From NCBI RefSeq assembly GCF_014280195.1, contig NZ_CP047960.1, positions 120,001-152,000 of the forward strand: a stretch of 32,000 nucleotides of DNA. Reading direction: 5' to 3'. The stretch comes from Synechococcus sp. A15-24 (lineage in GTDB: Bacteria; Cyanobacteriota; Cyanobacteriia; PCC-6307; Cyanobiaceae). The position numbers and the translations under genes are program-made. The notes beneath the pieces were generated by a model. It worked only from the letters and a program-made list of their open reading frames with translations, was not told the origin of the DNA and searched no databases. Positions 170-31,533 of the stretch are shown here, in pieces (the first letter of the stretch is position 1; every line of letters begins with the position of its first letter).

Positions 170-199
170 TTGACTATATGTTTTGCTTTGGGTTATACT
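170..199 (+). promoter_or_regulatory. Candidate sigma70-type promoter for the repeat-protein gene
   Basis: TTGACT (170-175), 18-nt spacer, TATACT (194-199), in the AT-rich spacer after the upstream stop. It would give a leader of about 240 nt before ATG 445. Confidence 0.3.
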
Positions 200-444: not shown

Positions 445-3400
445 ATGGCCTTTAACAGCACCATCACAGGATCGAGCACTGGGGATACCCTGCTCGGAAC
501 CGATTCAGACCAGTACATCGCTGGCGGATCTTCCGCCGATAGTATTTCTGTATCAATTGGATACACAGGCGTTTCAGTTCAAGCTGCTGCCGGAGACGAC
601 ACCATCCGTGCTCTCGGAGCTACCTCCACACTCAAAGGTGGCAGCGGTGCTGACAGCATCTACCTGACATCAGCGCTCGACAGTTCCAATATTGCGTCTA
701 ACACTGGTAACGACTCGATTCAGCTATTCGCTACCGCTTCCAGTTCCAAAATTTGGCTGGGCTCTGGTGCTGACTCCCTCCGCGTCGCAGCCAAAGGAAC
801 TGATCTCACGATCAAGGCAGGTACTGAGGCAGATACCATTTCATTTGCCCTAGATCAAACTTCCATCTATCTGGACGGAGAAGCAGGGGACGACATTGTT
901 CACTTCGCTGAAGGCCTGACTACTGGAACCCTTTTGGGCGGCAGTGGAGCCGACAGTCTTTATCTGGATGATCCGTCCACAAACGTCAGCTTGGGCGGTG
1001 GTGATGACGATGAAGCCGATACTTTCCATCTTGCTGACACAGCCACTTCTGTCAGCATTTCTGCGGGCAGTGGCGCCGATAGCATTTTGCTTGCAGGTGG
1101 CGTCGCAGGATCTGGTCAGGTTTTAACCGGCGCTGGCAACGATACGGTTCAGGTCACAGGCACCCTGATCTCTACTTCGCTCACTGGAAATGATGGCGAT
1201 GATTTCGTCAGCATCAGCGGAAAGGCGAATTCCAGCACCCTGAAAGGTAATTCAGGTGCTGACACCATCATTATCAGCAGTGGTGGTACCGCCACGAACA
1301 TTGCCACCAACATTGGCGATGACTCGATCTCTATTGGCTCCAAGCTGACCGGGTCCAAGATCTGGGGCGGAAGCGGCTCCGACACCATCACCATTGCAAC
1401 ACTGAGTTCTGGTGTTGTTGGTGGTCAGCAAGGCGCCGACCTTGTTGTTGCTTCAAAAATTGTTTCTTCAAATGTTCAGCTCGCTGTTTCGGATGAAGGC
1501 AGTTCACTCAAAGACACTCTTTCCGTTTCTGGATTAGTTAGTAATTCCACCATTCTTTCCAGCGATGGTGACGATTCTATTAGTCTTGGAACCCTTGCCG
1601 GTGGTACCACCACCCTTCTCGATGGAGGAGATACTCTGATTGTTGGCAGCAGCCTTGGTGGCGTTATCAACATGGGTGACGGTGCTGATTTGGTTAGTGC
1701 GGCAGGTTCCGTCAGTGCTGGCACATTGATGGGCGGTAGCGGAGCTGACAGTTTCACCTTGGGTGGCGCAGCCGCAACTTCAAGTGTTGTTGGTGGTTTT
1801 GGTGCTGACACCATCCAAATTGATGGTTCTGTTAAGTCAGCGACTATCCGTGGCGGTGATGCTGCAACACCAGGTAGTGAGCTTGATGGAAACGACACAA
1901 TCACTATTAGTGGTTCCGTTTCTGCTTCCAAGATCATCACTAACGTTGGTGCCGATTCTCTGGTAATCAACTCAGCGGCTATTAATTCCACAATGTTTGG
2001 TGGAAGCGGAGATGACTCCATCAGTATCGGTTCCAACCTTTCGAAAGGTGTCCTTTACGGAAATGCCGGCGCTGACTCTCTGCTAGTCAACACCAGCTTG
2101 GCTGGTGGTGCCTCCATCATCGGTGGTTCTGCTTCTGATGATGAGGATGCAGATTCGATCTCTGTCGGCAGTATCAATTCAGGATTTATTGCTGGCGAAG
2201 GTTCCAACGACACGATTGTTGTTAACGCAGCCGCTAAGAGTGCAACCATTAAAGGTGGTAGCGGAGCTGATTCCCTTACCCTGAATGGTGCTAACACTGC
2301 CGGCAAGATTTACGGAAACGCTGGCGACGACTCCTTTAGCATCGTTGGAGTAGTAACGAGCTCCACGGTCTCTGGTGGTGACGACGACGATTCCATTGTC
2401 TTCGACAGCGCCCTTACAAAGTCCAATGTGGGCGGTGATGATGGCGATGACTTGATGTCTGTCGCTGGAACTATCACTGCAAGTTCGCTGTACGGCGGCT
2501 CCGGTGATGACAGCTTCACTTTGGGTGCGATTACTGCTGGTACTTCTGTCCTTGGTGAGGCTGGCGCAGATTCGTTCTCCATCGTCAGTGCGCTGACTTC
2601 CTCTGTTGTTGGTGGCAGCGGTAATGATTCCATCATTATTGGTGGATCTGCCTACAAGTCCTTCCTTGATTCAGGAGATGACAAGGACTTGATCAGCTTT
2701 GGCGGAACATTCACCAGTTCAACAATTTCTGCAGGTTCCGGTAACGACACCATCTCCATCGCTGCTGGTGCAGGCGGCAAGGTCACGATTAATGCTGGCG
2801 CTGGCAACGACAGCCTCGTGATCGCAAGTGGTATTTCTGGTTCGACCATCCAAGGCGCTGGCGGCAACGATCACTTCAGCATTAGTGGTGGTGTTACATC
2901 TGACAGCTTGATGGGTGGCGCTGGTAACGACAGCTTCAACTTCACCGGCTCGCAGATTTCTGCTTCCACTATCAACGTTGGTCTTGGTAAAGACTCAATC
3001 CTTGGCAGTGGTTTAGGTGACAGCTTCACCCTCACCGCTACCTCTCTGAGCGGATCAACTCAGACTGCAATTTCTTTATCGGCAACAACCTTAATAGGCG
3101 GTGCTGGGGCAGATTACATTAACGTTGCCCAGATCATTACTGCTGGTCTATTCAGTGGTGATGCTGGAGCTGACTCGATCTACTTCGCTAAGTCTGTTGT
3201 TAACACAACAGTGAGTGGCTCAAATGCTTCTGATACAGTCAGCTTGAGCGGTGCTGCAGATGATTTGGTCTTAGCGACCTTCACATCAGGCAATGTCTTC
3301 TCTGCTAGCGGTGCAGATACCATCCGCTTCAAGGGAACGGCCACCGGCGGCACAGTTGACCTTGGTGTTGGGAGTGACAGCGTTTCCATCGGTGGGGTCC

Positions 3401-4899
3401 TCAACTCGACTCAAATCAGCACGGATGCAGGCGAAGATTCGATCCACTTCGCTAGCGGTGGTACAAGCGTTTCAATCTTCGCTGGCTCCGGTAACGACGT
3501 CATAACGTTCGGTTCCGACGCAATTAGCAGCTCTGATTCCTTGCTCGGTGGTGTTGGTAACGACTCCTTCGACTTCGACAACAACGTCACCGTTTCCACC
3601 ATGCAGGGTGGTTCGGGTAATGACACCTTCGTGTTTGCTCAAACCGTTACAGGCGCGTATGTCTCAGGTGATGCTGATAAGGATTCCATCGTCTTCACCG
3701 AAGTCGTTAACGGTGGCACTTCAGTTATGGGTGGTGCTGGTAAGGACACCATCAGCTTTGCTAACGGCGCTACCAGCATCTCGATTGCTGGTGGAAGCGG
3801 TGCAGATAAGTTGACCTTCTCTGGAGCAGCTGTTGCTGGTTCCACGGTTGACCTTGGTTCCGATTCTGATGTCTTCACCCTTTCCGTTGGTGCGAGCGGT
3901 ACCACGATCATGGGTGGTGCCAACAACGACACTCTGGTGTTTAGCGGTGACCTGACAGCAAGCAGCGTGCTTGGTGGTGATGGAAATGACTCCATCTCGA
4001 TTTCTTCTGAAGTCACTTCCGGCAACTCCATCGCCGGTGGATCTGGTGCTGACACGATCTTGTTCAGCGCTGGTGTAAGTCAGGCTGCTGTCTCTGGTGA
4101 TGCTGGAGCTGACAGCATCTCGTTTGGTGGCATTGTTTCCAACACCACAGTGGTTGGTGCCTCTGATGCAGACACCATCATCTTCAGCTCTAACGCTGAC
4201 CTCGTCTCTTACGACGGCGGTTTCGGTACAGGATCTATCGTCGGCGGCTCTGGTGCTGACACACTCGTCTTCATCAACGCAGGTGATCTGAGCGGTGGCA
4301 CTATCCGAGGTGGTGCAGGCGCTGATTCCTTAGTCTTTGCTGGCAACCTTGTCTCTGGTGTGTTCGGTGGTGATGCAGGTAACGACTTCTTCACGGGATC
4401 GATCTCCGTGGGTACCAGTGGCGTCAGCTTCTGGGGTGGAACAGGAAATGATTCCTTCAACTTCACTGATCTAACAGCCGGTACCTCCTCTACTGCCTAC
4501 TTCTGGAATGAGGCTGGTACCGATTCTGTCCATTTTGCTGACGGAATCAGCTTCGGTTACGACAACTTGGGAGCGAGTCAGCATGGTGGCATTGTATTCG
4601 GTATCGATACTGATGCTGCTAACAACATCAGTTTCGGCTCAGGTCAAGGTACTGCCCTCTTTGGAACTGCCGATGGTTCCTCTGGCTTCTTTATTGGAGC
4701 CAGCGGCAACACACTGGTCAGCTACGGCTTTGGCACTGCAACAGGGGTTACGATCGTCTTTGCCGGTGGCGCTCAAGCGACCCTTGCAGGTGGTGATTTC
4801 TCTTCTGCAAGTGCGACTGGTATCTTCTCCAACGCTTCTGGTGCTGGAGCTGGTACGGGTAACTTCGGTTCTGCTACTGCAATTCCGACCTTCAGCTGA
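445..4899 (+). CDS. Giant secreted RTX-like / beta-roll repeat protein; probable T1SS substrate and cell-surface (S-layer/SwmA-like) glycoprotein
   Basis: Single uninterrupted 1484-codon ORF. The product is Gly/Ser/Ala/Thr/Asp-rich, with no Cys and only 3 Pro seen. About 65 tandem degenerate units each carry G-x-G-[AND]-D-[ST]-[ILFV] (GGSGADSIYL, GNAGDDSFSI, GSGNDTISI ...), resembling hemolysin-type Ca-binding turns. The non-repeat Gly/Phe-rich C-terminal 117 aa fits an uncleaved T1SS signal. No N-terminal signal peptide. A dedicated terminator follows. ABC/HlyD genes lie 8 kb downstream. Confidence 0.93.
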   Translation: MAFNSTITGSSTGDTLLGTDSDQYIAGGSSADSISVSIGYTGVSVQAAAGDDTIRALGATSTLKGGSGADSIYLTSALDSSNIASNTGNDSIQLFATASSSKIWLGSGADSLRVAAKGTDLTIKAGTEADTISFALDQTSIYLDGEAGDDIVHFAEGLTTGTLLGGSGADSLYLDDPSTNVSLGGGDDDEADTFHLADTATSVSISAGSGADSILLAGGVAGSGQVLTGAGNDTVQVTGTLISTSLTGNDGDDFVSISGKANSSTLKGNSGADTIIISSGGTATNIATNIGDDSISIGSKLTGSKIWGGSGSDTITIATLSSGVVGGQQGADLVVASKIVSSNVQLAVSDEGSSLKDTLSVSGLVSNSTILSSDGDDSISLGTLAGGTTTLLDGGDTLIVGSSLGGVINMGDGADLVSAAGSVSAGTLMGGSGADSFTLGGAAATSSVVGGFGADTIQIDGSVKSATIRGGDAATPGSELDGNDTITISGSVSASKIITNVGADSLVINSAAINSTMFGGSGDDSISIGSNLSKGVLYGNAGADSLLVNTSLAGGASIIGGSASDDEDADSISVGSINSGFIAGEGSNDTIVVNAAAKSATIKGGSGADSLTLNGANTAGKIYGNAGDDSFSIVGVVTSSTVSGGDDDDSIVFDSALTKSNVGGDDGDDLMSVAGTITASSLYGGSGDDSFTLGAITAGTSVLGEAGADSFSIVSALTSSVVGGSGNDSIIIGGSAYKSFLDSGDDKDLISFGGTFTSSTISAGSGNDTISIAAGAGGKVTINAGAGNDSLVIASGISGSTIQGAGGNDHFSISGGVTSDSLMGGAGNDSFNFTGSQISASTINVGLGKDSILGSGLGDSFTLTATSLSGSTQTAISLSATTLIGGAGADYINVAQIITAGLFSGDAGADSIYFAKSVVNTTVSGSNASDTVSLSGAADDLVLATFTSGNVFSASGADTIRFKGTATGGTVDLGVGSDSVSIGGVLNSTQISTDAGEDSIHFASGGTSVSIFAGSGNDVITFGSDAISSSDSLLGGVGNDSFDFDNNVTVSTMQGGSGNDTFVFAQTVTGAYVSGDADKDSIVFTEVVNGGTSVMGGAGKDTISFANGATSISIAGGSGADKLTFSGAAVAGSTVDLGSDSDVFTLSVGASGTTIMGGANNDTLVFSGDLTASSVLGGDGNDSISISSEVTSGNSIAGGSGADTILFSAGVSQAAVSGDAGADSISFGGIVSNTTVVGASDADTIIFSSNADLVSYDGGFGTGSIVGGSGADTLVFINAGDLSGGTIRGGAGADSLVFAGNLVSGVFGGDAGNDFFTGSISVGTSGVSFWGGTGNDSFNFTDLTAGTSSTAYFWNEAGTDSVHFADGISFGYDNLGASQHGGIVFGIDTDAANNISFGSGQGTALFGTADGSSGFFIGASGNTLVSYGFGTATGVTIVFAGGAQATLAGGDFSSASATGIFSNASGAGAGTGNFGSATAIPTFS
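478..4545 (+). repeat. In-frame tandem array of about 65 degenerate ~57-63-nt (19-21-aa) coding repeats
   Basis: Hand parsing of the translation from GDTLLG (aa 13) to GTDSVHFADG (aa 1367). One G-x-D-[ST]-hydrophobic core recurs every ~20 aa, with a few longer units. The units are diverged at the DNA level. Confidence 0.85.
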
Positions 4900-4920
4900 T
4901 CACTTATCGATTCGTTCTCA

Positions 4921-4946
4921 CCTCCCCTTCGGGGGAGGTTTTTTTT
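4921..4946 (+). terminator. Rho-independent terminator after the repeat-protein gene
   Basis: CCTCCCC (4921-4927) / TTCG loop / GGGGAGG (4932-4938), followed by T8 (4939-4946), 22 nt after the TGA at 4897-4899. Confidence 0.8.
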
Positions 4947-4971
4947 GTTTTGCGATATTTTGTATTGCAGC

Positions 4972-6963
4972 ATGGCCAATTTCATTCAACTTTCGAACTG
5001 GGTCACCTCCTTCTATAAAGGCGACCGTCTCTCTTCTGAAACGCAGCTCCAGGCTGCGGCTTACCTCAATTCTGAGCTTGATATCTCCTCAGAGTTGGCT
5101 GTGATCAGGCGTTCTCAAGGGCGTGACAATTCCACCTCTCCTCTTAGTTCTCCTCATTACGCTTCAGGTTCTCTTACGTTGGTCGGATCTCAATCGCTTT
5201 ACCAGCAAAGGGGAATTAGCAAAAATAGTCGTTACGAATTAGTTTTGCAGTTTCCAGAAATTGTCGATGCGATACTTCTTTATGGGCTTATAGATGTTCT
5301 TTCTTATGACACAATATGGCATGATCAAAAGTCATCGTTTTATCGTTTGGGTGAGTTGCTCGACCGTCAATTTAATGATCGACCAGATATCGTTCTTCAA
5401 TTGGTTCAGAATAAGAATGCCTTTTCGATTTTAAAAACTTTGCCATACCAAAGGATTGAATCCTCGGCCTATTATCGGAATACAGCTTGCTCTATCTATT
5501 TCTTGCATAGTCTATGGGCAAAGGGGTGTTTTGAATTAATTGTTCGCAATTATGCTAGTTATGCCTTTAATCGTCGTAGTTTTCCAAAAAGTGACTTTAT
5601 GCTTCGTTGCTTCACAAATTTAGGGCTTGACAGTCGAGTTAGTGCTTTATTTCGTGATGTTTATCATCGTTACCATAAAGAGCTACAGCTTCAGTCAATC
5701 AGTAACATGCTTTTTGTTGAGCACGGAATGGAAAAATTAGACCAGCATCGTATCTCAATTCTTGTAAAGGACTATCATAATTTGTCGCGGTTGGAAATTG
5801 CAGACCATGCTGATGTTGATCCGCCGAGTAAAATTCAGAACGCCAATCGTATGATTTCAATTCACGAGAAAAAGACGATAGCGGTTGTCTCGGCAGATCT
5901 CCGTAATCATCCTGTTGGTAGATTCTGGCTGCCAATTGTTAGTGCACTTTATCGTGATTATAATATTGTTTACGTAGCTCTTAATTCAGACCCCAACGTT
6001 GTCGATCAAACGCGTTCTCGTCTTAAATCATTGTCGACGCAGTGGTGTGATTTGTATTCCGGTGAGAATCCGTTACCGGTCCTTCGTTCGCTGGCGCCGG
6101 ATGTCCTGATTGATTTAGGTGGTCATACTGCTGACAATCAACCTGGCCTCCTGAATTTTCGTATTGCCCCTTTGCAGATCACATATCTTGGTTTTTATGG
6201 ACCCAGCTATGGCAATGAATGCGACTGGTGGGTGCTTGACCGTGAAATTGCTAGCCGTGTCGGGTCGTCCTATCACGGAGCTGAATCAATCTGGGCTTTG
6301 CCCTGTCCAAGTCTCTGTTTCGATCCTGATGTCCATGGTGTTCCTTCACCGGATAAAATTTACTACACGAATTCGTCTTCTCCTGTTTTTGGGTCATTTA
6401 ATCATACGCGTAAGTTGACGCAACAGTGTCTATCTAGATTTCATTCCGTTTTAGGTGAGTTCCCCGATTCAAAACTTCTTTTTCGTGCGCATTCCTTTTT
6501 TGATCCGCAGATTCGTCGTTGGTTTTTGTCTAAACTTGTTCAGTCTGGTGTAGCGCCTTATAAATTGTTAGCAATACCCTACGCACCTACTCCTTTTGAA
6601 GGATACTGCGATTACGGGAGAATTCACGTACATTTTGATACCTTCCCTGTTTGTGGTACTACAACAACTCTTGATTCTTTAGCAATGGGCATTCCGGTTT
6701 TAACGTCTCCGAACCATCTGTACGCAGGTGCCATCTCGTCTGCAATCATTGAACATGCCGGTTTTACTGAGTGGATTGCTGAACATCCCGATGAACTTCC
6801 CCAGAAGGCTTCTGAACTTTTTGAGCGGTATCGAACAGCTGACTCGCGGCGAGCCTTAGCTAATCACATTCGTTCATCTTCCTTGTGTGACACCTTAAAT
6901 ACACCTCGAATCTTCTCCGAACAACTCATAGAAATGATGAAATGTTCAAACCTTAGAAGATAG
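4972..6963 (+). CDS. GT41-family glycosyltransferase (OGT/SPINDLY/HMW1C-like) without recognisable TPRs
   Basis: The track's TTG start at 4945 lies in the terminator T-tract, so the first ATG at 4972 (MANFIQ...) is preferred. The C-terminal ~340 aa aligns by eye with the catalytic half of ORF 8155-10467: DLGGHTADNQP/DLAGHTAGNRL, APLQITYLGFYG/APIQATYLGYYG, FGSFNHTRKLT/LGSFNQSRKIT, DTFPVCGTTTTLDSLAMGIPVLT/DTFPYTGCTTTADALWMGVPVLT. The N-terminal ~320 aa shows no TPR periodicity. Confidence 0.8.
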   Translation: MANFIQLSNWVTSFYKGDRLSSETQLQAAAYLNSELDISSELAVIRRSQGRDNSTSPLSSPHYASGSLTLVGSQSLYQQRGISKNSRYELVLQFPEIVDAILLYGLIDVLSYDTIWHDQKSSFYRLGELLDRQFNDRPDIVLQLVQNKNAFSILKTLPYQRIESSAYYRNTACSIYFLHSLWAKGCFELIVRNYASYAFNRRSFPKSDFMLRCFTNLGLDSRVSALFRDVYHRYHKELQLQSISNMLFVEHGMEKLDQHRISILVKDYHNLSRLEIADHADVDPPSKIQNANRMISIHEKKTIAVVSADLRNHPVGRFWLPIVSALYRDYNIVYVALNSDPNVVDQTRSRLKSLSTQWCDLYSGENPLPVLRSLAPDVLIDLGGHTADNQPGLLNFRIAPLQITYLGFYGPSYGNECDWWVLDREIASRVGSSYHGAESIWALPCPSLCFDPDVHGVPSPDKIYYTNSSSPVFGSFNHTRKLTQQCLSRFHSVLGEFPDSKLLFRAHSFFDPQIRRWFLSKLVQSGVAPYKLLAIPYAPTPFEGYCDYGRIHVHFDTFPVCGTTTTLDSLAMGIPVLTSPNHLYAGAISSAIIEHAGFTEWIAEHPDELPQKASELFERYRTADSRRALANHIRSSSLCDTLNTPRIFSEQLIEMMKCSNLRR

Positions 6964-8158
6964 CTGCAAGTGGCTTGAGTAGCTCCTCAAGTTTGTCAAT
7001 TGTGTTGCTCAACGCATAATGTTTTTGAATATATTCCTTTGAATTTTTACCCCATGCCCGAAGTTTTTTCGGCTGTTTCAGGAGTTTATGAATGGCCTCT
7101 CCAAGGCCTTTTTCATCCCCTTGATAAAGGGCTCCGGTGATTCCGGGTTTGATCAATTCTTTGATCATTGCATTGTTATTTCCGATCACGGGTGTTCCAC
7201 ATGCCATGATTTCGATCAGGCTCCAGCTCAGCACGAACGCGCTCGAAAGGTAGACATGTAAGTCACTTCTCAAATACAACTTGATCAGCTGTTCATGGGG
7301 TATTCGAGGGAAGAAATGTATACGTGTCAGATCTATTTGTCCTTCAAGCTCATGCAATAAGATGTCTTTCCAGCTTCTCCCATCATCTGATGCACTAGAA
7401 TAACTGACTCCATCACCTCCAACAATGACGATGTGCACTCTTTTATTCAAGGCTTGTAGCCTAACTAAAGATCTCATGAACGTAGGGAAACCACGCATCG
7501 GCTCAAGATTTCTGCTGATGTAGGTCACAACAGGTGTATCTTCACCCAACGTTAATTCTGGTGTAAGTGTTAAGCGATTGATTCTTTGATTCTGAAACAT
7601 TGTCTCTTCTACTCCCTCATGTAATACGTTTATCTTATTCTGAAGTCTTTTGGGAAAACTATCGGCTTGAAATTGTGTTGGTAACATCGCGGTTTGCGCT
7701 TGGCTTAAAGACAATTCAACTAAACTATTTTTGTTTTGAAGATAATGCCATTGCTGTAGGGTCATTGATGCATCTGTTTGTCCTAATTGTGTAGGTCTAA
7801 GCCATAGTTCTGGCCAGAGAACTAGAGCACTGCTTGGATATATTCTTTTTAATAGTAAGGTCTCACCCCATCCTGGATGCCCCAAAATGATATCGGGAGC
7901 CCAGTCTTTCCCCTTGAGTAGATTAGCTTGTTCTGCAGCTAGCTCACTTCGATGAATCCATTCGTCGACTTCCTTTGTTAGTTGATGAATCCCGGAACAT
8001 TCCTTTTGTTTATACTCGTATCTATACGTTTCAATCTTGTCATAAATGGGTTTTCCGTGGCTGCAAATCGCTTTTACTTCGTGGCCTCTGTCCACCAGAG
8101 CTGGTGCAATATCACGAAATTGGCCTGGGAAATTTTGGTGTATACAGAGTATTTTCAC
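6953..8158 (-). CDS. GT4-family (Glycos_transf_1) glycosyltransferase
   Basis: 401-aa ORF. N-terminus MKILCIHQNFPGQF...; C-terminal block HVYLSSAFVLSWSLIEIMACGTPVIG...GITG is typical of the GT4 E-x7-E region. Its start overlaps the upstream stop by 4 nt (8155-8158). Confidence 0.85.
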   Translation of the reverse strand: MKILCIHQNFPGQFRDIAPALVDRGHEVKAICSHGKPIYDKIETYRYEYKQKECSGIHQLTKEVDEWIHRSELAAEQANLLKGKDWAPDIILGHPGWGETLLLKRIYPSSALVLWPELWLRPTQLGQTDASMTLQQWHYLQNKNSLVELSLSQAQTAMLPTQFQADSFPKRLQNKINVLHEGVEETMFQNQRINRLTLTPELTLGEDTPVVTYISRNLEPMRGFPTFMRSLVRLQALNKRVHIVIVGGDGVSYSSASDDGRSWKDILLHELEGQIDLTRIHFFPRIPHEQLIKLYLRSDLHVYLSSAFVLSWSLIEIMACGTPVIGNNNAMIKELIKPGITGALYQGDEKGLGEAIHKLLKQPKKLRAWGKNSKEYIQKHYALSNTIDKLEELLKPLAAIF

Positions 8159-10467: not shown

Positions 10468-10515
10468 ACCCCTATGGTCTCATGAAATAATCATCCCAAA
10501 TGGCTTGAGCGGACA

Positions 10516-19135: not shown

Positions 19136-19141
19136 GATTGT

Positions 19142-20017
19142 CTACGCGTCGAGCATTCCGATAAAGTTACGCCCAGCATGCTCTACGGTTAGAAATTGAC
19201 TGTTGGTTAAATGTGGTTTCATGATCTGGAACATTTTCATGACTCCCAATGTAGCTGCACTCTCAAGCGGCCCATGGAATGATGTGTCTTCGACGTCCCA
19301 GTATTCACTCTTGAAATATTTATTAGACTGCTTTTTATTTAGAAAAAAACATCCTGAATGAGTGTTGAATGGCTGTGTGAATAGAACGCTTTCCCCAAGA
19401 TGATCCATATAGAGCTCTTTGTTCATGGATTGTCTGTATTTTTCTGTGGCTTCCGGATTGTAATCACCATCGATCAGGAACCTTCGCAGGTTTTTAAGGT
19501 TTTGGCTGGTTTCAATTCGATTTGGCTGCAATAAATAGATATCTGAGAACACTCGATTGAATCTTTGTAATTTTTTAAAAAAGTCAGCGTCTCTGATGAT
19601 GATGTCATCTTCCAGGTAACAGTTGTAGTCGTACTTCGTGTAATCTTGCGCAAGAATTCGATGGCACTGAAATCCAAGATGTTTTGGCTGGTCTGGCTCA
19701 CATTCAATGCGCGTAAATGCTCCTACGTTCTCTAAATCCTCCAGTTCGTTGAGTAGGTGTTTATCCTTAGTGATACAGATGGAGATTTTTAGCTCGCTTT
19801 CTATGTCTTTCACGATTTCGACGCGTCGTTTGACATGATTCAATGCACCTGTTGGATGTCCGAACAGTCGATGCAGTTGCAGGATCAGTTCCCTTAAGGC
19901 GCTGGTCCGTCCCAGCGAATCAGGGCTTAATGACCCGTGCCTGCCCCCTCCATCAGGATTGAAGTAATGAACGACTGCAAAGTGGAGACGCACGACGACG
20001 GGTTCTTTGTGGTTCAA
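19142..20017 (-). CDS. Hypothetical protein; possible GT-A-fold glycosyltransferase
   Basis: 291-aa ORF lying 6 nt upstream of the GT4 gene on the same strand. It has an N-terminal beta-strand-like segment VVVRLHFAVVHYFNP and an acidic YLEDDIIIRD (DxD-like) motif. No family was recognised with confidence. Confidence 0.55.
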   Translation of the reverse strand: MNHKEPVVVRLHFAVVHYFNPDGGGRHGSLSPDSLGRTSALRELILQLHRLFGHPTGALNHVKRRVEIVKDIESELKISICITKDKHLLNELEDLENVGAFTRIECEPDQPKHLGFQCHRILAQDYTKYDYNCYLEDDIIIRDADFFKKLQRFNRVFSDIYLLQPNRIETSQNLKNLRRFLIDGDYNPEATEKYRQSMNKELYMDHLGESVLFTQPFNTHSGCFFLNKKQSNKYFKSEYWDVEDTSFHGPLESAATLGVMKMFQIMKPHLTNSQFLTVEHAGRNFIGMLDA

Positions 20018-20055
20018 TTTACTTCTACACCCATCGCCAGCCTGTTAGGCATCAG

Positions 20056-20289
20056 TTGTTGTCACACCCGATCCCCCTCTCAAGACGCCTTCGGCGTCTG
20101 TTCGTACGGCTCCGTATAAGCCCTTTGTCTGTCCCCTTGTTCCTCCTGTTCTTATGGTCAGGCGTGGTGGCTGCACTGGCTCGCGTTGCCGACCCCTGGA
20201 TTGTTGGCCTAGCCGCGACACCTTTGGCTTTTGCTGCCTGCTTGGCGTTGTTATGTCTTTGGGCCTATCGCAAAGATTTTTATGCCTGA
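20056..20289 (+). CDS. Possible small two-TM membrane protein (77 aa)
   Basis: TTG-start ORF with an Arg-rich N-terminus and two hydrophobic spans (LSVPLFLLFLWSGVVAALA; IVGLAATPLAFAACLALLCLWA). It lies in a GC-rich patch. Its stop overlaps ATG 20282 of the next gene (ATGCCTGA). No homology was recognised. Confidence 0.35.
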   Translation: MLSHPIPLSRRLRRLFVRLRISPLSVPLFLLFLWSGVVAALARVADPWIVGLAATPLAFAACLALLCLWAYRKDFYA

Positions 20290-21964
20290 TCCGGCAGCTT
20301 TAATGCTTCCAGGGGATGCTTTTGATGTCGACCATCAGCAGATCATCGGTCGGCGTGTTGCTGGTCGTTCCATGGCTTTGGGTTTTGCTTCGCAACTGAC
20401 TGCAGGTGATACTCTTTCTTTGATCTGTTTTAATCAACAGGAGCGTAGGCGGCTACAGGATCTTTTAATTCCTAATCTTCATCCAGAGGCTTCCCTTCGT
20501 TTTCCTGATCTTAATCCTGAGTCACTGACGGAGATCGGCGCCATTCATCTTCCAGATCCAGGTCTTTCTCGTTGGCAATTGCTGCGATCCTCCTGTCCCG
20601 CAAACGCTTTTTCGTTGACGGGTGTTATTCATACTTTGTCTTCATCCGATGTGATTAGTGAGCTGGAACGTTTGTTTTTGTCTCCTTTGTGTTCATGGGA
20701 TGCTCTTGTTTGCACATCAACTGCTGGTCGTGATGTTGTAACTGCTGTTTTCAAGTCATTTCAACAATATCTTGAGTCCCATTTTTCCTGCTCCATCACC
20801 AAACGAGACGGGCTTCAGCTTCCCATCATTCCTTTGGCTGTTTCAGACCCCTTGCCTGAGACTATGGGTTTTGACTCAGACAGACGTCGTCACAGATGTC
20901 AGTCAAGAAAGACTCTTCAAATAGACCAATCGGCTTTCGTCATCCTTTTTGTTGGTCGCCTTAGTTTTCATAGCAAGTCTCATCCTCTTCCACTATATCG
21001 AGCTGTGAATCGCCTTTCGGCGGAAAATCCTGGTCGAAAGATTGTTCTTTTAGAGTGCGGTCACATCTTTAACCAGCCTATTGAAACAGCTTATCAAGAC
21101 CTAGCGCGCCAGTTTTTGAACCTTTCGATTATTCGGCTGGGAGGCCTGGAACCAGCATCCGAGCAGGAAAAGCGTGATGCTTTTGCGGCAGCAGATGTCT
21201 TTGTCTCTCTTGCTGATAATCTTCAGGAGACTTTTGGCCTTTCAATTATTGAAGCGATGGCCGCTTCTTTGCCAGTCATTTCAACGGATTGGAATGGTTA
21301 TAAAGATCTTGTTGATAACGGCATTACTGGGTTTAGAATACCTGTTTCAATGGTGAGCAATAATTCTGATCAATATGATTGGATCGATTCTATGTATGGC
21401 CTGGGTCTTATGCCATATGACACGATGATTGGGTTAAGGAGTATGGCGGCAATTGTTGAACATCAGCCGCTTTATAGAGCCTTGCATTTGTGTCTAAACT
21501 CATCATCCTTGGTTCAACTCATGGGGGCGAATGCCCGCCAACGTTGGATCGAATCCTTTAGTTGGAGTCCAGTTTATCGTCAATATCTTGATCTTTGGTC
21601 AGAATTGGCAGATCGTCGCGTATGTTCTAGTTCGGTACGTACATCTATATCTTCTTTTCCTACCCCTACCTCAAAACCTTTTTCTCATTATCCTACAAAG
21701 CTTATAAAGCCTTATTCTGTCGTATGTGGGTCGTTGTCGGAGGTTGAACTGCTTCCGCTGTCGACGCTCCGACTGTCGATGAATTCGTCGTTTCTAGAGT
21801 CTCTTTCAAATCAACATTTAGATGCAGTGATTAATTATCTTGAGCATCATCATTGTATAGATGTTCACGCACTTACCTCCTTTGGTCTCTCGCGTTCTAA
21901 TGCCTTGGCACTCTTAGCTGCATTGATCAAGCTGGGTGTTGCAGTTTTGGATAAGGTCCAATGA
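20282..21964 (+). CDS. GT4-family glycosyltransferase with C-terminal extension
   Basis: FVILFVGRLSFHSKSHPLPLYRAV and ADVFVSLADNLQETFGLSIIEAMAASLPVISTDWNGYKDLVDNGITGF form a GT4 core. ATG 20282 is preferred to the track's TTG 20231, which would overlap the small ORF. About 150 extra C-terminal residues are of unknown function. Confidence 0.85.
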   Translation: MPDPAALMLPGDAFDVDHQQIIGRRVAGRSMALGFASQLTAGDTLSLICFNQQERRRLQDLLIPNLHPEASLRFPDLNPESLTEIGAIHLPDPGLSRWQLLRSSCPANAFSLTGVIHTLSSSDVISELERLFLSPLCSWDALVCTSTAGRDVVTAVFKSFQQYLESHFSCSITKRDGLQLPIIPLAVSDPLPETMGFDSDRRRHRCQSRKTLQIDQSAFVILFVGRLSFHSKSHPLPLYRAVNRLSAENPGRKIVLLECGHIFNQPIETAYQDLARQFLNLSIIRLGGLEPASEQEKRDAFAAADVFVSLADNLQETFGLSIIEAMAASLPVISTDWNGYKDLVDNGITGFRIPVSMVSNNSDQYDWIDSMYGLGLMPYDTMIGLRSMAAIVEHQPLYRALHLCLNSSSLVQLMGANARQRWIESFSWSPVYRQYLDLWSELADRRVCSSSVRTSISSFPTPTSKPFSHYPTKLIKPYSVVCGSLSEVELLPLSTLRLSMNSSFLESLSNQHLDAVINYLEHHHCIDVHALTSFGLSRSNALALLAALIKLGVAVLDKVQ

Positions 21965-22947
21965 GGACACAACTTTATTTTGTTTGCTATCCCGATACTG
22001 ACCACCCCATTGGCGGTGTCAAGCAGATTTATCGTCAAGTTGAGTTGTTGTGTCAATGTGGTATTGATGCCAAGGTTCTTCATGAAAAATCTGGTTTTCG
22101 TGTGTCTTGGTTCAACTCTGATGCTCCTGTTGTTGATATTGATTCCTACATCGAGGGAAGACCAAATGCCGAGACAGATTTGATTGTTTTACCTGAGACT
22201 TGGGTTGCCAATATCCCTACGTATCTCACAGGAATTAAGAAAGTTATATTCAACCAGAACGCTTACTACACCTTTGGTTTGGAAGGAAAATTTGATGCTT
22301 CGGTTTTGAATTTTTATCAGCACCCTGATGTTCTTGGCGTTGTAACTGTATCCAGAGACAATCGAAATTTTCTCGTCGCTGGATGTGGTTTGGCGGATTC
22401 ATTTGTTCATAGTGTTATTAATGGTATTGATCGTCGTTTATTTTACCCTCCTGAAGTCAAGGTACGTCGCATTGTCTTTTTCGAGCGCAAGCATTTTAAT
22501 CATGCTAATACCGTTGCCTTAATGTCACGACAGCGTGATGTTCTGCGTCACTATGAGTTCAAATCTCTCGGAAAAATGCCCCACGAACAGGTTGCACGGG
22601 AACTTCGGGAGGCTTTGGTCTTTTTGAGTTGTGGTCACCCAGAAGGTTTTGGTCTTCCATTGGCGGAAGCGATCGCATGTGGTTGTATTGCCGTCGGATA
22701 CCATGGTTTAGCTGGTCGAGATTTTTGTACTAAGGCACTGCACCATGTTGAGTATGGTGATCTCTTAGGTTTCGTAAATATTTTGGAGCAAGCTGTCTAT
22801 GAATTTGAGGCCAACACCCAAGTGGTTTCATCTGACCTTCTGCGGAATGCTGATCATATGCTTCGCGAATATAGTTTTGAGCGAGAGAAAGAAATTTGTT
22901 TAAATGTCTGGCAGAATATTGTTAACCGTTTAAGTTCCTGCGATTAA
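21961..22947 (+). CDS. GT4-like (GT-B fold) glycosyltransferase
   Basis: 328-aa ORF. ALVFLSCGHPEGFGLPLAEAIACGCIAVGYHGLAGRDF is a Glycos_transf_1-type block. Its start overlaps the upstream stop by 4 nt. Confidence 0.75.
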   Translation: MRTQLYFVCYPDTDHPIGGVKQIYRQVELLCQCGIDAKVLHEKSGFRVSWFNSDAPVVDIDSYIEGRPNAETDLIVLPETWVANIPTYLTGIKKVIFNQNAYYTFGLEGKFDASVLNFYQHPDVLGVVTVSRDNRNFLVAGCGLADSFVHSVINGIDRRLFYPPEVKVRRIVFFERKHFNHANTVALMSRQRDVLRHYEFKSLGKMPHEQVARELREALVFLSCGHPEGFGLPLAEAIACGCIAVGYHGLAGRDFCTKALHHVEYGDLLGFVNILEQAVYEFEANTQVVSSDLLRNADHMLREYSFEREKEICLNVWQNIVNRLSSCD

Positions 22948-22948
22948 A

Positions 22949-24070
22949 CTAAAGCGATTTGTTTGTTCTTCTCTGCAGATATTTTCTTATATCCCCTAAT
23001 GGTTCTTTCCAGCAGTTAAATACCTTTTGTTGGTAAATTCTTATAGTGTTCATGTACACACCTTTGCTTTGTAGAAGTTCCAGCCATCGCTCATCGGGAT
23101 GTAGAGGCAATAAGAGGTTGGTTTTTGCCTCAGATGTGGCTGCAAGGTGTCCTAGCGATGTATCGACTGTAATAATTTCATGACTATTTGCAATGAGCTG
23201 AACTGTATCCTCAAGACTCTTAATCTTCTTTCTTATTAAATTAACTTTCGGTAACATTGATTTTAATATGGCGCACTCTCGATCACTATACTCTGATATG
23301 TCATTAATTGTGATTGTCTTTTCTTCTATCTCATTGGACCAATCTTTTAGCCATTCAATGATGCTCGCAAAAGGTACGGATCTGCTAAATGAGCTGAATT
23401 GGTTTTGAGGATCTTTTTTGCACCTCCAGCATACCAAGATATTCAAAGTTTCTTCTTGCAATTCCTTATTTATTTCGTGAATGCCTTCAAATATTAACGG
23501 TAAATACATCGTTCTTTCCATCCAGTAGCGATACATTGGTGTACTTAGTTCTACTGCAAACTTGTCGCACGAATTTGCTAGCAAATGTTTGCATTTTGAG
23601 TTTTTCAAATGATCCATAACCACCTTGCTGTTTTGCCCCTCTGCCCTCATTTTTAGGTCTGGGTCCCTTCCTATTCTTCTTCGTCTCTGGTGTGCCAACA
23701 CTAATGATGCTGCTTCCAGTTGGTCTCCGATTCCTCCCACCAGCAGGATGCAAACGGCATGTCCGCAGCCTATGGCTCGATTAACGCGATCAACGGCTGC
23801 CGCCAGGTTTCCATGACTCGATAGGCTCGCCCATGTGTTGGATTTCTGTTGACCTCTTCTGGCTCGACACAATGCTTGCTTACCTATTGTTAGTGAATCA
23901 ATCTCTTGCTTTATAATTTCGGCTTCGCAGTCAGTGTGCTCCCCTAAGTATGTCAGCATTGAAATATTTTTAGCTTTTTCCTCTATCAGCTTGGCAGCTG
24001 CGGCAGCTCTCCGTTGATAGCGGATCGCTAGTTGCAGATCATTGTTGTAGAGCCACCATCCTTGTTTCAT
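22949..24070 (-). CDS. GT9-like glycosyltransferase-fold protein
   Basis: AVCILLVGGIGDQLEAASLV and ITVDTSLGHLAATSEAKTNLLLP resemble the two GT9 signature blocks. ATG 24070 (MKQGWW...) is preferred. The track's start at 24199 would overlap the upstream GT4 gene by 113 nt. Confidence 0.6.
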   Translation of the reverse strand: MKQGWWLYNNDLQLAIRYQRRAAAAAKLIEEKAKNISMLTYLGEHTDCEAEIIKQEIDSLTIGKQALCRARRGQQKSNTWASLSSHGNLAAAVDRVNRAIGCGHAVCILLVGGIGDQLEAASLVLAHQRRRRIGRDPDLKMRAEGQNSKVVMDHLKNSKCKHLLANSCDKFAVELSTPMYRYWMERTMYLPLIFEGIHEINKELQEETLNILVCWRCKKDPQNQFSSFSRSVPFASIIEWLKDWSNEIEEKTITINDISEYSDRECAILKSMLPKVNLIRKKIKSLEDTVQLIANSHEIITVDTSLGHLAATSEAKTNLLLPLHPDERWLELLQSKGVYMNTIRIYQQKVFNCWKEPLGDIRKYLQRRTNKSL

Positions 24071-24086
24071 ATTTTCTAGGATGCTT

Positions 24087-25256
24087 TCACTGGAATGTTG
24101 TTGTGTTGATGTGATGATTTGATTTGTCTTCCATGATTTCTCTAAAACACTGGTCCAGTACCTCTGCACTTCTTTCGGGCCTAAATCTAGCGAACGCATT
24201 TTGTTTTGCTTTTCGCCCCATATCCTTAACTTTTGCTATATGGCGACTGCACCATTCCAGTTGCTGATAAAGGGCATCGCTGTCTCCTGGAGGCACGAGA
24301 AGTCCATCAATGCCGTGGGTGATTACTTCAAATGCCCCACCCATACCACTACTAATTGGCAAAACTCCATTCGACATCGCCTCTGCTACGACCATTCCAA
24401 ATGCCTCCGGATAGAGAGACGGAAAGACTAGAACATCTATATCACGGTAGATATTTTTTAGCCCATGTGGCTCGACAAAACCCATCCAACGAACATTGTC
24501 TTTGATGTTTGCTCTTGCGCAATAGTCTACAAGTGCCTTTTCGTATTCTTTTGAAAAGGCATGGCCTGCAACTGTGATGTTAAATTGCTTCTTATATCTC
24601 TTCATTTTACTCGCTGCTTCCATGAGAACATGAAGTCCTTTGGAATGCATGAGAAGTCCAACAAAACCTATACGCAGCTGATCACCGCTGCACTTGCTTC
24701 TGAGCTCCTCCTCCGGTTTGCTTAGAGCTAGTGGTGGGTACACAATAGGATGGTTCTCGATATTATGTCCCATTGTTTTCAATAGGCGCTTCACCTCTCC
24801 TGACGCTGATGCAATCCTGAATGGCTTTGTGTAAGGGATCCAGTTACCTTGAAAGGGTGATCCCATAAACCCGATATGCATTATTGTTGGAATGTCTTTG
24901 GTTAAAATGTAGTCCAATAGCCCTTTGCCTAACAAGTCTAAATTACCAACAAGGCATGCACTTGGTATGTGCTCTGATATTGCATGACTTACAGTTTTTA
25001 AGTTGTGTTTGATTCGTTCTTCTTTTTCATGCCCCTCATCTAGGTTCTGAACCCCATTTTTGTACTCTCCAAGTAGTTTGAGTTTCCGTTGTATGTCATG
25101 CCTGCCTTGACCTGCCCCTAAATCTGGCTGGTCTCCTGTTAATACAACCTCAGAATATCCTCTTGCTTTCAGCCCCTCTGTAAGCCTTTCGATGCAAAGC
25201 CCAAACCCACCCAGGTTTTGTGGTGGGTAAATGTTGGTGATCACCAGCAGTTTCAT
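24087..25256 (-). CDS. GT4-family glycosyltransferase
   Basis: 389-aa ORF. MKLLVITNIYPPQNLGGFG... N-terminus and VLVFPSLYPEAFGMVVAEAMSNGVLPISSGMGGAFEVITHGIDGLLV (E-x7-E block). Confidence 0.88.
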   Translation of the reverse strand: MKLLVITNIYPPQNLGGFGLCIERLTEGLKARGYSEVVLTGDQPDLGAGQGRHDIQRKLKLLGEYKNGVQNLDEGHEKEERIKHNLKTVSHAISEHIPSACLVGNLDLLGKGLLDYILTKDIPTIMHIGFMGSPFQGNWIPYTKPFRIASASGEVKRLLKTMGHNIENHPIVYPPLALSKPEEELRSKCSGDQLRIGFVGLLMHSKGLHVLMEAASKMKRYKKQFNITVAGHAFSKEYEKALVDYCARANIKDNVRWMGFVEPHGLKNIYRDIDVLVFPSLYPEAFGMVVAEAMSNGVLPISSGMGGAFEVITHGIDGLLVPPGDSDALYQQLEWCSRHIAKVKDMGRKAKQNAFARFRPERSAEVLDQCFREIMEDKSNHHINTTTFQ

Positions 25257-25338
25257 GGCTCTATCCCACCTTCTTCTGGTACGGGTTTAGGGGACTTGTG
25301 CCACTCATTAGAATTTAGCCCTAACCCTGCGCGGCTTC

Positions 25339-26472
25339 ATGGAACGTTACCACGGTCAGGAATTGGGTGAGCGGCCCCATATCGCCGTACTTGGTTCGAG
25401 CAAGATTGGAAATTTTGTCGTAACGGTTCCGCTTTTACAAGCTCTCGCAGAGCGTTTCAATTCTCCTGTCATTGATTTTTGGGGTAGTGAGCTCACGCGA
25501 GACTTTGAGACTGAGTTACCGCAAATTAGTTGGCGTTTTTCTTGGGATCGACCTGATGGAAACCTTTTATCCTCCTTGTCTGAAGCCGCCTCACAGCGTT
25601 TATCAGAAGTTGGCCCTCTTGATTTGCTGATCAACTGCGACGGGTTTAATCCCGTAACTCAAGTCCTTGCTAGCTGGTTGCGCCCTCATTTTGTCGCGGG
25701 TGCATCGCTATCTCTCAACAGCCGTTCGTCTTTTCCATGGGGAGATCATCCTTATCAGCGTTTTCTGAATGATCCCGATTGGGATTCTCCGGCTTTTTTA
25801 GCTCGTTATCCTGACTTCTTTAAGAGCAATTATATCGGCGAGCTGCTTTGTCGTTTGGCCTTTTTGGATATGCCTGATAGTCCTTGCAGCCTCCCATCTC
25901 GTCCTCCAAGCTTTAGCACTCCAGATGTATTAATTCACGTTACAACAACACGAGCGGCGAAGATCTGGCCCGCTGCTCACTGGCAGGAAGTTCTTTCTTG
26001 GTGTAGCAGGCAAGCTATCACTGTCGGGCTTGTCGGTAGTCCCCCGAAGCGTCAACAGGAGGATTACAACGCAGGTGATCTTGAAGATATTCTCCTTTCA
26101 ACCACTGATTTGATCGACCTTCGTGGTCAAACGAGCTTGATTGAGTTGGCAGGTGCGTGCCTTCAAGCCAAAGCTGTCGTCAGTGTTGATGCTGGTCCGA
26201 TGCACATTGCAGCTGCAGTCGGCACGCCAACCCTTGCTGTTGTAGGTAATGATCCATCCGGCCTTGGAGCCAGCCCGATTCGCTTATGGATGCCACGGAG
26301 CTCGAACTGTGAGCGAACTGTTTCAACATTCAGTTGCGACGGCTGTGAAGCCGTCCGCTTCCGCAATGATTCCTGTCTCAAAGAGTCTCACTTCTGCATG
26401 GAGGGCGTCCCTGCAAGCCAGGTCATCACATGGCTTGATCGGTTGCTCCGTACCGCTGAAGTCTCTCGGTAG
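25339..26472 (+). CDS. GT9-family glycosyltransferase (heptosyltransferase-like) with C-terminal Cys/His cluster
   Basis: HIAVLGSSKIGNFVVTVPLLQAL and VVSVDAGPMHIAAAVGTPTLAVVG are GT9 blocks. The C-terminus carries C-x8-C-x2-C-x9-C-x4-H-x-CM (NCERTVSTFSCDGCEAVRFRNDSCLKESHFCMEGV). Confidence 0.8.
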   Translation: MERYHGQELGERPHIAVLGSSKIGNFVVTVPLLQALAERFNSPVIDFWGSELTRDFETELPQISWRFSWDRPDGNLLSSLSEAASQRLSEVGPLDLLINCDGFNPVTQVLASWLRPHFVAGASLSLNSRSSFPWGDHPYQRFLNDPDWDSPAFLARYPDFFKSNYIGELLCRLAFLDMPDSPCSLPSRPPSFSTPDVLIHVTTTRAAKIWPAAHWQEVLSWCSRQAITVGLVGSPPKRQQEDYNAGDLEDILLSTTDLIDLRGQTSLIELAGACLQAKAVVSVDAGPMHIAAAVGTPTLAVVGNDPSGLGASPIRLWMPRSSNCERTVSTFSCDGCEAVRFRNDSCLKESHFCMEGVPASQVITWLDRLLRTAEVSR

Positions 26473-29310: not shown

Positions 29311-29312
29311 TC

Positions 29313-31463: not shown

Positions 31464-31533
31464 ATGTTGTCGTGAAGCTGCTGTTTAGTGTCTTCGCGTG
31501 TGCTATGTTAATTTTTTATGACTATAAGAGCAA

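Follow-up and report, generated by a model that had tools for sequence, protein, structure and literature searches.

A conserved and probably mobile picocyanobacterial cassette that links a putative type I-secreted repeat protein of Synechococcus sp. A15-24 to candidate protein glycosyltransferases

The DNA analyzed here, a window of 32,000 bp from Synechococcus sp. A15-24 (contig NZ_CP047960.1, positions 120,001 to 152,000), contains an interval (445–26472) in which the gene of a long repeat protein, the ATP-binding cassette (ABC) and HlyD genes of a putative type I secretion system (T1SS), and a series of glycosyltransferase (GT) genes are found side by side. An earlier note had described this interval as a self-contained module for the glycosylation of the repeat protein in the cytoplasm and its subsequent export by the T1SS, and the genes it listed are indeed present where it placed them, as checked through open reading frames (ORFs), Pfam, and NCBIfam. 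The interval is island-like, since its computed GC content of 45% compares with 56% in the adjoining core gene secA. The host strain is one of only 2 clade III strains that lack both swmA and swmB (Doré et al., PMC7522525). The features from the repeat protein gene to the end of the exporter operon, with TPR standing for tetratricopeptide repeat and cNMP for cyclic nucleoside monophosphate, are:

170–199, plus strand: promoter-like site TTGACT-18-TATACT, weak, from a consensus scan only (10 of 12 matches).
445–4899, plus strand: putative T1SS substrate of 1484 aa, acidic and Cys-free, with RTX-like repeats (composition, repeat, models, orthologues).
4920–4939, plus strand: strong intrinsic terminator directly 3' of the substrate gene (8-bp stem with 6 GC pairs, T-run; top-ranked in the scan).
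4945–6963, plus strand: GT41 glycosyltransferase without recognizable TPR (Pfam GT41, E 1.6e-11; SPINDLY, E 1.3e-32).
6953–8158, minus strand: GT4 glycosyltransferase (Pfam Glyco_trans_4_3 and Glycos_transf_1).
8155–10467, minus strand: TPR-GT41 of the OGT/SPINDLY type, predicted protein O-glycosyltransferase (Pfam GT41, E 4e-45, and TPR).
10516–12204, plus strand: TPR and GT9-like glycosyltransferase, first gene of the exporter operon (TPR families; GT9 with 24.5 bits over 29 residues).
12201–12893, plus strand: cytoplasmic parvulin-like (PpiC-type) protein (weak Rotamase match, E 0.006).
12890–15901, plus strand: T1SS ABC exporter with a cNMP-binding-like domain, a linker, a dead C39-like domain, and HlyB-type membrane and ATPase domains (Pfam, NCBIfam, Protein Data Bank (PDB)).
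15864–17189, plus strand: HlyD-family membrane fusion protein with one N-terminal transmembrane segment (HlyD_3, E 2.4e-21; TIGR01843, E 8.5e-47).
17186–17935, plus strand: small DXD glycosyltransferase (Gly_transf_sug/Caps_synth, GT32-like), last gene of the exporter operon (Pfam).

The repeat protein is dominated by Gly (17.9%), Ser (16.4%), Ala (10.9%), Thr (9.7%), and Asp (9.2%), with a pI of 4.05, no Cys, 3 Pro, and 136 Asp against 13 Glu. Its earlier description as rich in Ser, Thr, and Asn is borne out for Ser and Thr, which together make up 26%, but not for Asn (4.4%). The repeat unit is 20 residues long (consensus GGsGaDSIsi.G..tsstI.), and each unit joins an RTX-like calcium-binding half, which holds a single GGxGxD core, to a Ser/Thr-rich half. 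No hydrophobic segment and no Sec signal were seen at the N-terminus, and the extreme C-terminus is conserved among the orthologues (NFGSATAIPTFS in the window, NFGTAVAIPTFS and FSANTVPVFS elsewhere), following the pattern ..AIPTFS or ..VPVFS. Being acidic, built of Gly/Asp repeats, devoid of a Sec signal, and conserved at its C-terminus, the protein has the predicted hallmarks of a T1SS cargo, as the earlier note had recognized. An exhaustive search with the last 175 residues retrieved 61 representatives among 1.84 billion proteins, and the matches to this domain almost always lie at the C-terminus of the protein. A word-indexed search with the whole repeat protein returned only repeat-level matches to unrelated RTX giants (24–34% identity) and missed the true orthologues, which were recovered through synteny. 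In exact-sequence look-ups, neither the repeat protein nor SecA matched a record, and the same held for the ABC and parvulin-like proteins.

An NCBIfam calcium-repeat model matches the repeat protein with an E-value of 2e-19, far under its cut-off, and we class the protein as an RTX-like variant and not as a canonical RTX member. The single-sequence AlphaFold (AF2) model is a regular beta-solenoid with a predicted local distance difference test (pLDDT) of 80–90 in the repeat part, and its nearest PDB entry, at a nonsignificant Foldseek E-value of 0.035, is the calcium-dependent beta-helix 3p4g; the modeling thus suggests that the protein probably forms a calcium-binding beta-helix. The terminator at 4920–4939 makes 445–4899 a transcription unit of its own (monocistronic), and the promoter-like site at 170–199, if used, would give it a leader of approximately 245 nt. 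Promoter and terminator scans of the window yielded overall counts at the level of shuffled sequence, with this terminator as the sole standout, and no tRNA, Rfam family, or DNA-level tandem repeat was found in the window.

The exporter operon comprises 5 genes joined by stop/start overlaps, in the order TPR-GT9, parvulin-like, ABC, HlyD, and GT32-like, with an overlap of 38 bp between the ABC and HlyD genes. As the earlier note had pointed out, it therefore encodes 2 GTs together with the exporter, the TPR-GT9 and the GT32-like enzyme. The ABC protein reaches 672.6 bits (E 6e-202) against the NCBIfam HlyB model TIGR01846, which has a curated cut-off of 725.55, and E 1.2e-147 against the HlyB structure 7sgr in the PDB. 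Pfam Peptidase_C39 has no match in the protein; in its C39-like domain, as in those of 8 homologues, which are all that were examined, EQG replaces the peptidase motif ECG/DCG and the His segment is deleted. Judging from these residues, the domain is catalytically dead. A peptidase-active exporter for double-glycine leader substrates is ruled out by this loss of Cys and His, and the ABC protein falls into the HlyB class, with uncleaved C-terminal signals and RTX-type cargo, and not among the leader-cleaving bacteriocin exporters.

The parvulin-like protein is 100% identical to one annotated in Synechococcus sp. A15-24. It also gives a marginal match to the SurA parvulin domain, and a homologue in Prochlorococcus has a stronger Rotamase match (9e-8). 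Its gene precedes the ABC gene in every related locus with preserved upstream sequence, Prochlorococcus included. That this partner is conserved although the cargo has only 3 prolines suggests a role as chaperone or adaptor over one in prolyl isomerization, and we propose that it is dedicated to the exporter. We know of no type I system that has been described with a parvulin-like partner, and literature searches turned up no report in which a type I operon combines translationally coupled TPR-transferases with a parvulin-like gene.

For the 2 GT41 proteins, the alignment covers the SPINDLY/OGT catalytic domain in full, and the motifs FGSFN..K and DTFP..GTTTT of SPINDLY are preserved in both. 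In the product of 4945–6963, it is the C-terminal 372 aa that span the whole SPINDLY catalytic domain (residues 484–824), while the N-terminal part of about 300 aa (302) has no family match and no detected TPR. The TPR-GT41 has no predicted transmembrane segment and matches SPINDLY (1.4e-93), the OGT of T. terrenum (5djs, 5e-71), and human OGT in the PDB; its gene is cotranscribed with that of the GT4 enzyme at 6953–8158, and this unit diverges from the exporter operon across a gap of 48 bp. All characterized members of the OGT/SPINDLY branch of GT41 that we know of modify proteins, which favors the cytoplasmic glycosylation of an exported protein. The N-glycosyltransferase (NGT) equivalog model NF049992 scored 21.5 bits for the TPR-GT41, with a cut-off of 1000. 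The earlier assignment to protein-directed GT41 enzymes therefore stands as far as the OGT/SPINDLY type is concerned, and falls for the HMW1C/NGT type.

The second TPR-containing transferase, TPR-GT9, has 562 aa, with TPRs at residues 9–270, a GT-B domain at 270–562, and no transmembrane segment; the presence of TPR modules in 2 GTs of the locus, as previously noted, was thereby confirmed. TPR arms serve as modules for protein binding. In its AF2 model (pLDDT 90.5), the C-terminal domain adopts a GT9-type GT-B fold, and its best Foldseek matches are the GT9 structure 3tov (3.4e-07), WaaF (3.6e-07), and WaaC (1e-06). TibC appears at rank 10 (E 5.8e-05, TM score 0.54, 10–12% identity), and a PDB sequence profile search had a best E-value of only 0.7. 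Kinship of this enzyme with TibC/AAH, which the earlier note had raised, is thus unsupported by sequence profile or fold ranking, the fold being nearer to heptosyltransferases of lipopolysaccharide (LPS) synthesis. Furthermore, the TPR-GT9 family is broad, with 1497 matches, among them proteins from Nostoc, Nitrospira, and alphaproteobacteria. The transferases are devoid of transmembrane segments, with one hydrophobic stretch at a C-terminus as the exception.

With respect to the linkage, 29 N-x-S/T sequons were observed in the substrate against 17 expected. The entire excess is explained by the RTX-like motif, to which the N-D-[ST] sequons (13 of the 29) belong, and in the Prochlorococcus counterparts described below the excess amounts to z between −0.1 and 1.2. 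N-glycosylation of the substrate was therefore rejected, as the sequon excess reflects the repeat motif and the NGT model is unmatched. Together with the OGT type of the GT41 enzymes, this leads us to expect O-linkage to Ser/Thr if the protein is glycosylated.

The first 8 genes of the locus constitute a core in the order substrate, GT41-like, GT4, TPR-GT41, TPR-GT9, parvulin-like, ABC, and HlyD, and the same gene order recurs in at least 4 other picocyanobacterial lineages. Loci used for comparison are numbered with the prefix L. In 5 marine metagenome contigs (L032–L036), the core is found with an orthologous substrate that is 40–48% identical in its C-terminal half. The freshwater species S. 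lacustris (L117, L118) encodes a substrate of 1748 aa that shares 38% identity over 1252 aa; most of the transferases found downstream in the window come after it, and the GT41-like and GT32-like genes are lacking. A more distant version in Vulcanococcus (L006) includes a 557-aa protein with a match to the Pfam RTX model PF00353 (E 3.7e-20). The synteny comparison that the earlier note had called for thus turned out positive: the core stays together in marine and freshwater lineages and in Vulcanococcus, with S. lacustris as a version without the GT41-like gene. Identities of the core proteins across these lineages range from 38% to 71%.

At the level of single genes, the GT41-like gene is conserved in L001, L002, L006, and L032, the GT4 gene at 6953–8158 in L001, L002, L032, and L118 (45–56% identity), and the TPR-GT9 gene lies directly upstream of the parvulin-like gene in L001–L003, L006, L007, L032, and L118. 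The GT32-like gene is a variable member of the cassette, being present in L001 and L002 and absent in L032 and L118. The stop/start overlap junctions of the exporter operon recur in the called genes of L032 and L118. Based on these comparisons, genetic coupling of the transferases to the substrate–exporter pair is supported in the clade that includes the window. Contigs L001 and L002, both from metagenome-assembled genomes (MAGs), end approximately 240 bp upstream of the GT41-like gene, which fits an assembly break in the repeat gene.

A related arrangement exists in Prochlorococcus (L011–L014), where giant Cys-free, Ser/Thr-rich proteins, of at least 2881 aa in L011, are encoded directly upstream of parvulin-like, ABC, and HlyD genes. 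The giant proteins have in common a C-terminal motif that is particular to them. A TolC gene is adjacent in L012 and L014, and one Prochlorococcus locus also carries a TPR-GT41 as well as sugar-nucleotide enzymes. In L014, a DUF2827 gene is located between HlyD and TolC, and L013 has an ORF of similar size in that position.

The GC content of the cassette in the window (4945–26472) is 44.9% and that of the S. lacustris cassette (L118:4683–20684) is 44.6%, and the UW140 version has 60%. The near-equal values of the first two, far below that of host secA, are consistent with the entire block having passed between freshwater and marine hosts. Marine and freshwater picocyanobacteria have probably exchanged the surface-coat module as a whole, on an island beside secA.

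Two contigs deserve separate mention. In a Tara scaffold (L035:1-2150), an intact 1885-aa substrate gene ends at position 659. Behind it lies a degraded duplicate of the C-terminal part of the substrate, in which stop codons precede the last 271 aa and these 271 aa themselves are intact and nearly identical; this duplicated end may have been left by an exchange of cassettes within the gene of the surface protein. The contig CAYFMB010000077.1 (L003) carries the cassette, with TPR-GT9, parvulin-like, ABC (67% identical), and HlyD genes, in a MAG labeled as uncultured Klebsiella sp., and is probably a mis-binned picocyanobacterial contig.

The best explanation that we can offer for the locus is a horizontally mobile cell-surface cassette of picocyanobacteria. 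The product of 445–4899 would be a calcium-binding, beta-helical surface protein without Sec signal, probably an S-layer or adhesin-type coat, that is exported unfolded and C-terminus first by an HlyB-type system consisting of the ABC protein, HlyD, and a TolC encoded elsewhere. The noncatalytic C39-like domain would serve in substrate docking, and the N-terminal cNMP-like domain could act as a sensor. Prior to export, soluble cytoplasmic transferases would hold the Ser/Thr-rich repeats with their TPR arms and attach O-linked sugars, the candidate enzymes being the 2 OGT/SPINDLY-type GT41 proteins, the TPR-GT9, and the GT4, and the parvulin-like protein would keep the chain export-competent or pass it to the exporter.

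As a whole, i.e., an O-glycosylated RTX-like coat protein with TPR-guided enzymes, dedicated HlyB-type export, and a parvulin-like helper, we consider this explanation to have an even chance of being correct, and its parts differ in strength. It is very likely that the repeat protein is the cargo of the exporter, since the synteny with orthologous substrates and the location of the giant Prochlorococcus proteins beside the exporter strongly support this pairing. That the repeat protein is also the acceptor of the transferases is moderately supported, and for glycosylation of the substrate before export the gene content leaves the balance about level. O-linkage, the role of the parvulin-like protein, and ligand gating through the cNMP-like domain are what we infer beyond this. 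Of the earlier proposal that cytoplasmic glycosylation precedes T1SS export, the pairing of substrate and exporter and its coupling to protein-type transferases are thus supported, and the glycosylation itself is a prediction. A more far-reaching version would be a dedicated glyco-T1SS, in which O-glycosylation by GT41 and TPR-GT9, holding by the parvulin-like protein, and cNMP-gated release are followed by passage through ABC-HlyD-TolC, and which would be widespread in picocyanobacteria, serve giant substrates in Prochlorococcus, and provide the coat of a clade III Synechococcus that has lost SwmA/SwmB; this is possible, and we put it forward only tentatively.

Several results weigh against an exported glycoprotein. 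No Pfam family matched the substrate at E≤0.01, the RTX model PF00353 included, and its structural match is weak (pLDDT 67, with the above Foldseek E-value of 0.035 and no match at E≤0.001). Some genomes have the exporter trio without neighboring transferases (L009), so that glycosylation is not obligatory for this exporter family. Pfam and NCBIfam searches of the 32-kb window revealed neither sugar-nucleotide genes nor a gene of the TolC/OEP family. The locus is therefore not self-contained, contrary to the earlier note, and TolC for the A15-24 exporter is presumably encoded elsewhere in the genome; an unlinked TolC is common for type I systems. Moreover, the transferase-rich region upstream of secA is an LPS/polysaccharide (Wzm/Wzt) island in relatives, and for GT4 and GT9 enzymes the usual acceptors are lipid-linked or belong to LPS.

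The latter points lead to the most serious alternative, which is modeled on the RsaA locus of Caulobacter. Here, the T1SS would export an unglycosylated RTX-like S-layer protein, and the transferases would build the LPS O-antigen, core, or polysaccharide that anchors it via Ca2+, or would merely be co-located. In C. crescentus, rsaA-rsaDE are followed by O-antigen genes that are needed for S-layer attachment. Besides this precedent and the GT4 and GT9 enzymes, which belong to typical LPS/polysaccharide families, this alternative draws on the fold of the TPR-GT9, nearest to the LPS heptosyltransferases WaaF and WaaC, on the variability of the downstream block between lineages, and on the genomic neighborhood: the cassette abuts a GT4 and Wzt/Wzm cluster in L032–L036, and a relative with 94% identical SecA has Wzm/Wzt genes upstream. 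However, it has to accommodate 2 protein-type GT41 enzymes and a TPR-GT9 that are a conserved, operon-coupled part of the cassette and, in the case of the TPR enzymes, carry arms that bind proteins. Furthermore, the same family searches of the window detected no Wzx/Wzy, Wzm/Wzt, priming transferase, or ligase, in agreement with the earlier note, which had seen none of the Wzx/Wzy, priming, ligase, or sugar-nucleotide genes. This reading fits the downstream block (17927–26472) much better than the GT41/TPR core, and for the locus we judge it unlikely, if well short of negligible.

Alternatively, the TPR transferases could have a different protein as their target, for instance a pilin, a part of the exporter, or a regulator in the cytoplasm, and the repeat protein could be exported unmodified. 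The only cyanobacterial GT41 with a reported target that we found acts on PilA (PMC9306852), and the TPR-GT9 family, broad as it is, is not restricted to type I contexts. However, the cassette has no gene for a pilin or for a different candidate acceptor, and the transferases strictly adjoin substrate and exporter across lineages in which all else changes, which makes a foreign acceptor improbable. Picocyanobacterial islands are known to accumulate glycosyltransferases (PMC7522525, PMC2441476), and this accumulation, together with the low, island-like GC content (45% against 56% in secA), could suggest that unrelated surface genes have come together by chance in a hypervariable island. The recurrence of the 8-gene order and of its overlaps in marine, freshwater, and Vulcanococcus lineages at 38–71% identity is incompatible with this view; we consequently treat chance co-location as excluded and give it next to no weight. 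The exported, O-glycosylated repeat protein remains our preferred reading of the core.

This reading has parallels in several known systems. Reportedly, in work by Brahamsha from 1996 and by McCarren and Brahamsha from 2005–2009, SwmA requires glycosyltransferase genes as well as an ABC/HlyD transporter for its production and localization; it is said to have approximately 835 aa and its transporter and transferase genes to lie in separate clusters. SwmA and oscillin are glycosylated cyanobacterial RTX proteins (PMC3034196), and glycosylation of SwmA is also described elsewhere (PMC2943079). The repeat protein of A15-24 thus resembles SwmA of strain WH8102, which is glycosylated, in being an RTX-type surface protein of clade III Synechococcus. 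Compared with SwmA as described, it is larger (1484 aa), has a 20-residue repeat with one GGxGxD, and is encoded with its transferases and exporter in one cassette with operon coupling. The E. coli system HlyB/HlyD/TolC shares with the window the HlyB-like domains, the inactive C39-like domain, and the HlyD partner, and the hemolysin paradigm also matches in its acidic, Cys-free, Gly/Asp-repeat-rich cargo with a C-terminal signal region. In contrast to it, the ABC protein of the window has an extra N-terminal cNMP-binding-like domain of approximately 300 aa, and its operon adds parvulin-like and glycosyltransferase genes, with no acyltransferase and with TolC unlinked.

A rare domain architecture of cNMP-binding-like, C39-type, and ABC exporter parts is likewise found in HetC of Nostoc PCC 7120, another cyanobacterial protein, which needs its ppGpp-binding cNMP-like domain in order to function (PMC10986499). 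The peptidase domain of HetC is active, as in peptidase-containing ABC transporters (PCAT), whereas the catalytic Cys and His are absent from the window protein, as in HlyB. The Caulobacter RsaA locus brings together an RTX-type S-layer protein, type I exporter genes, and many glycosyltransferase genes. It therefore resembles the window in uniting these elements in one locus, but its transferases make the anchoring LPS O-antigen, and it has no GT41 or TPR transferases.

With regard to the enzymes, the TPR-GT9 resembles FlmG of Caulobacter, by architecture alone, in being soluble with N-terminal TPRs and a C-terminal GT-B domain. Serine-rich repeat adhesins are glycosylated before they pass narrow export channels. 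The TPR domain of FlmG binds flagellin, and cytoplasmic glycosylation of flagellin precedes its export (PMC7591256), so that passage of a glycosylated chain through an export channel is less paradoxical than the earlier note had stated. The route of FlmG substrates is the flagellar type III apparatus, while the candidate route here is type I secretion. For the GT41 enzymes, OGT and SPINDLY proteins, among them Ogt of S. elongatus, are comparable in their full catalytic domain and motifs, and 1 of the 2 window enzymes also has TPRs. Ogt of S. elongatus is needed for the glycosylation of the pilin PilA (PMC9306852) and provides a cyanobacterial GT41 precedent for the modification of a surface-exposed protein; unlike in that case, the window has 2 paralogous GT41 enzymes within a secretion cassette that includes a candidate dedicated acceptor. 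Finally, HMW1C/NGT and TibC/AAH (BAHT) share with the window the concept of cytoplasmic glycosylation of a repetitive beta-helical surface protein by an enzyme encoded nearby, as well as GT41 and GT9-like folds. Their export, however, proceeds through two-partner secretion or as autotransporters, not through type I secretion, and for the BAHT enzymes TibC and AAH, an iron-finger motif and dodecameric assembly are named in the titles of PDB entries 4rap and 4rb4.

The surfaces of picocyanobacteria decide about grazing, phage adsorption, aggregation, and possibly calcium carbonate nucleation. The genetic basis on which their RTX-type glycoproteins, such as SwmA and oscillin, receive sugars and traverse the envelope is not known to have been established. 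Here, a candidate acceptor, 4 candidate protein transferases, a chaperone-like protein, and an exporter are combined in one conserved, operon-coupled unit. The cassette is therefore a compact system that could be reconstituted in order to ask if a glycosylated chain can pass through a type I conduit, how repeat substrates are chosen by TPR arms, and whether a cNMP-like domain regulates type I export.

Downstream of the exporter operon, the interval continues with a block of further genes that leads up to secA:

17927–19135, minus strand: GT4 glycosyltransferase (Pfam), with conservation limited to the freshwater loci of S. lacustris and UW140.
19142–20017, minus strand: conserved 291-aa protein without family, 62–66% identical in the freshwater loci L001, L002, and L118.
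20231–21964, plus strand: GT4 glycosyltransferase with a hydrophobic C-terminal segment (family search).
21961–22947, plus strand: GT4-like glycosyltransferase, marginal (28.5 bits, cut-off 26.4).
22949–24199, minus strand: possible GT9-like protein, sub-threshold (Pfam 19.3 bits, cut-off 22), with the motif VDTSLGHLAA.
24087–25256, minus strand: GT4 glycosyltransferase (E 3.7e-33).
25339–26472, plus strand: GT9 glycosyltransferase (E 9e-21), last gene before secA.

In the interval 445–26472, 11 genes match a glycosyltransferase family, 10 of them above the curated Pfam cut-off and 1 (22949–24199) below. The earlier count of 12 clear GT genes was thus too high. The product of the 291-aa ORF at 19142–20017 has no Pfam, NCBIfam, or PDB match. 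For the GT9 protein at 25339–26472, every match to the NCBIfam heptosyltransferase models is under the cut-off.

This block varies between lineages. In L108 (1–10000), the relative with 94% identical SecA, GT4 and GT2 genes and a Wzt/Wzm ABC-2 exporter take the place of the cassette upstream of secA, and in the marine lineage the cassette is followed by a GT4-Wzt-Wzm-GT4 set (L032:15502-20699). Several Prochlorococcus-like contigs have parvulin-like, ABC, and HlyD genes upstream of secA. On account of these differing surface genes, the secA-proximal region looks like a recurrent site for surface-structure genes, and the variable block, located where relatives carry a Wzm/Wzt polysaccharide cluster, may act on LPS. 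Accordingly, the transferases at 17927–26472 may either extend the same glycan as the core enzymes or belong to a pathway for LPS or another polysaccharide.

At the upstream edge of the window, positions 1–135 of the plus strand hold the last 45 codons of an ORF that enters from outside and ends in GMWGWATFEIVFFNKVGAMTTAVNC*. At the opposite edge, secA (in the region 26506–32000) is sandwiched between low-GC glycan genes, with the following features downstream of it:

29313–29999: GT6 glycosyltransferase.
29985–31463, minus strand: GT2-like/Galactosyl_T-like gene.
31528 onward, running off the window: Sulfotransfer_2 ORF.

The glycan genes and the sulfotransferase beyond secA hint at sulfated surface glycans.

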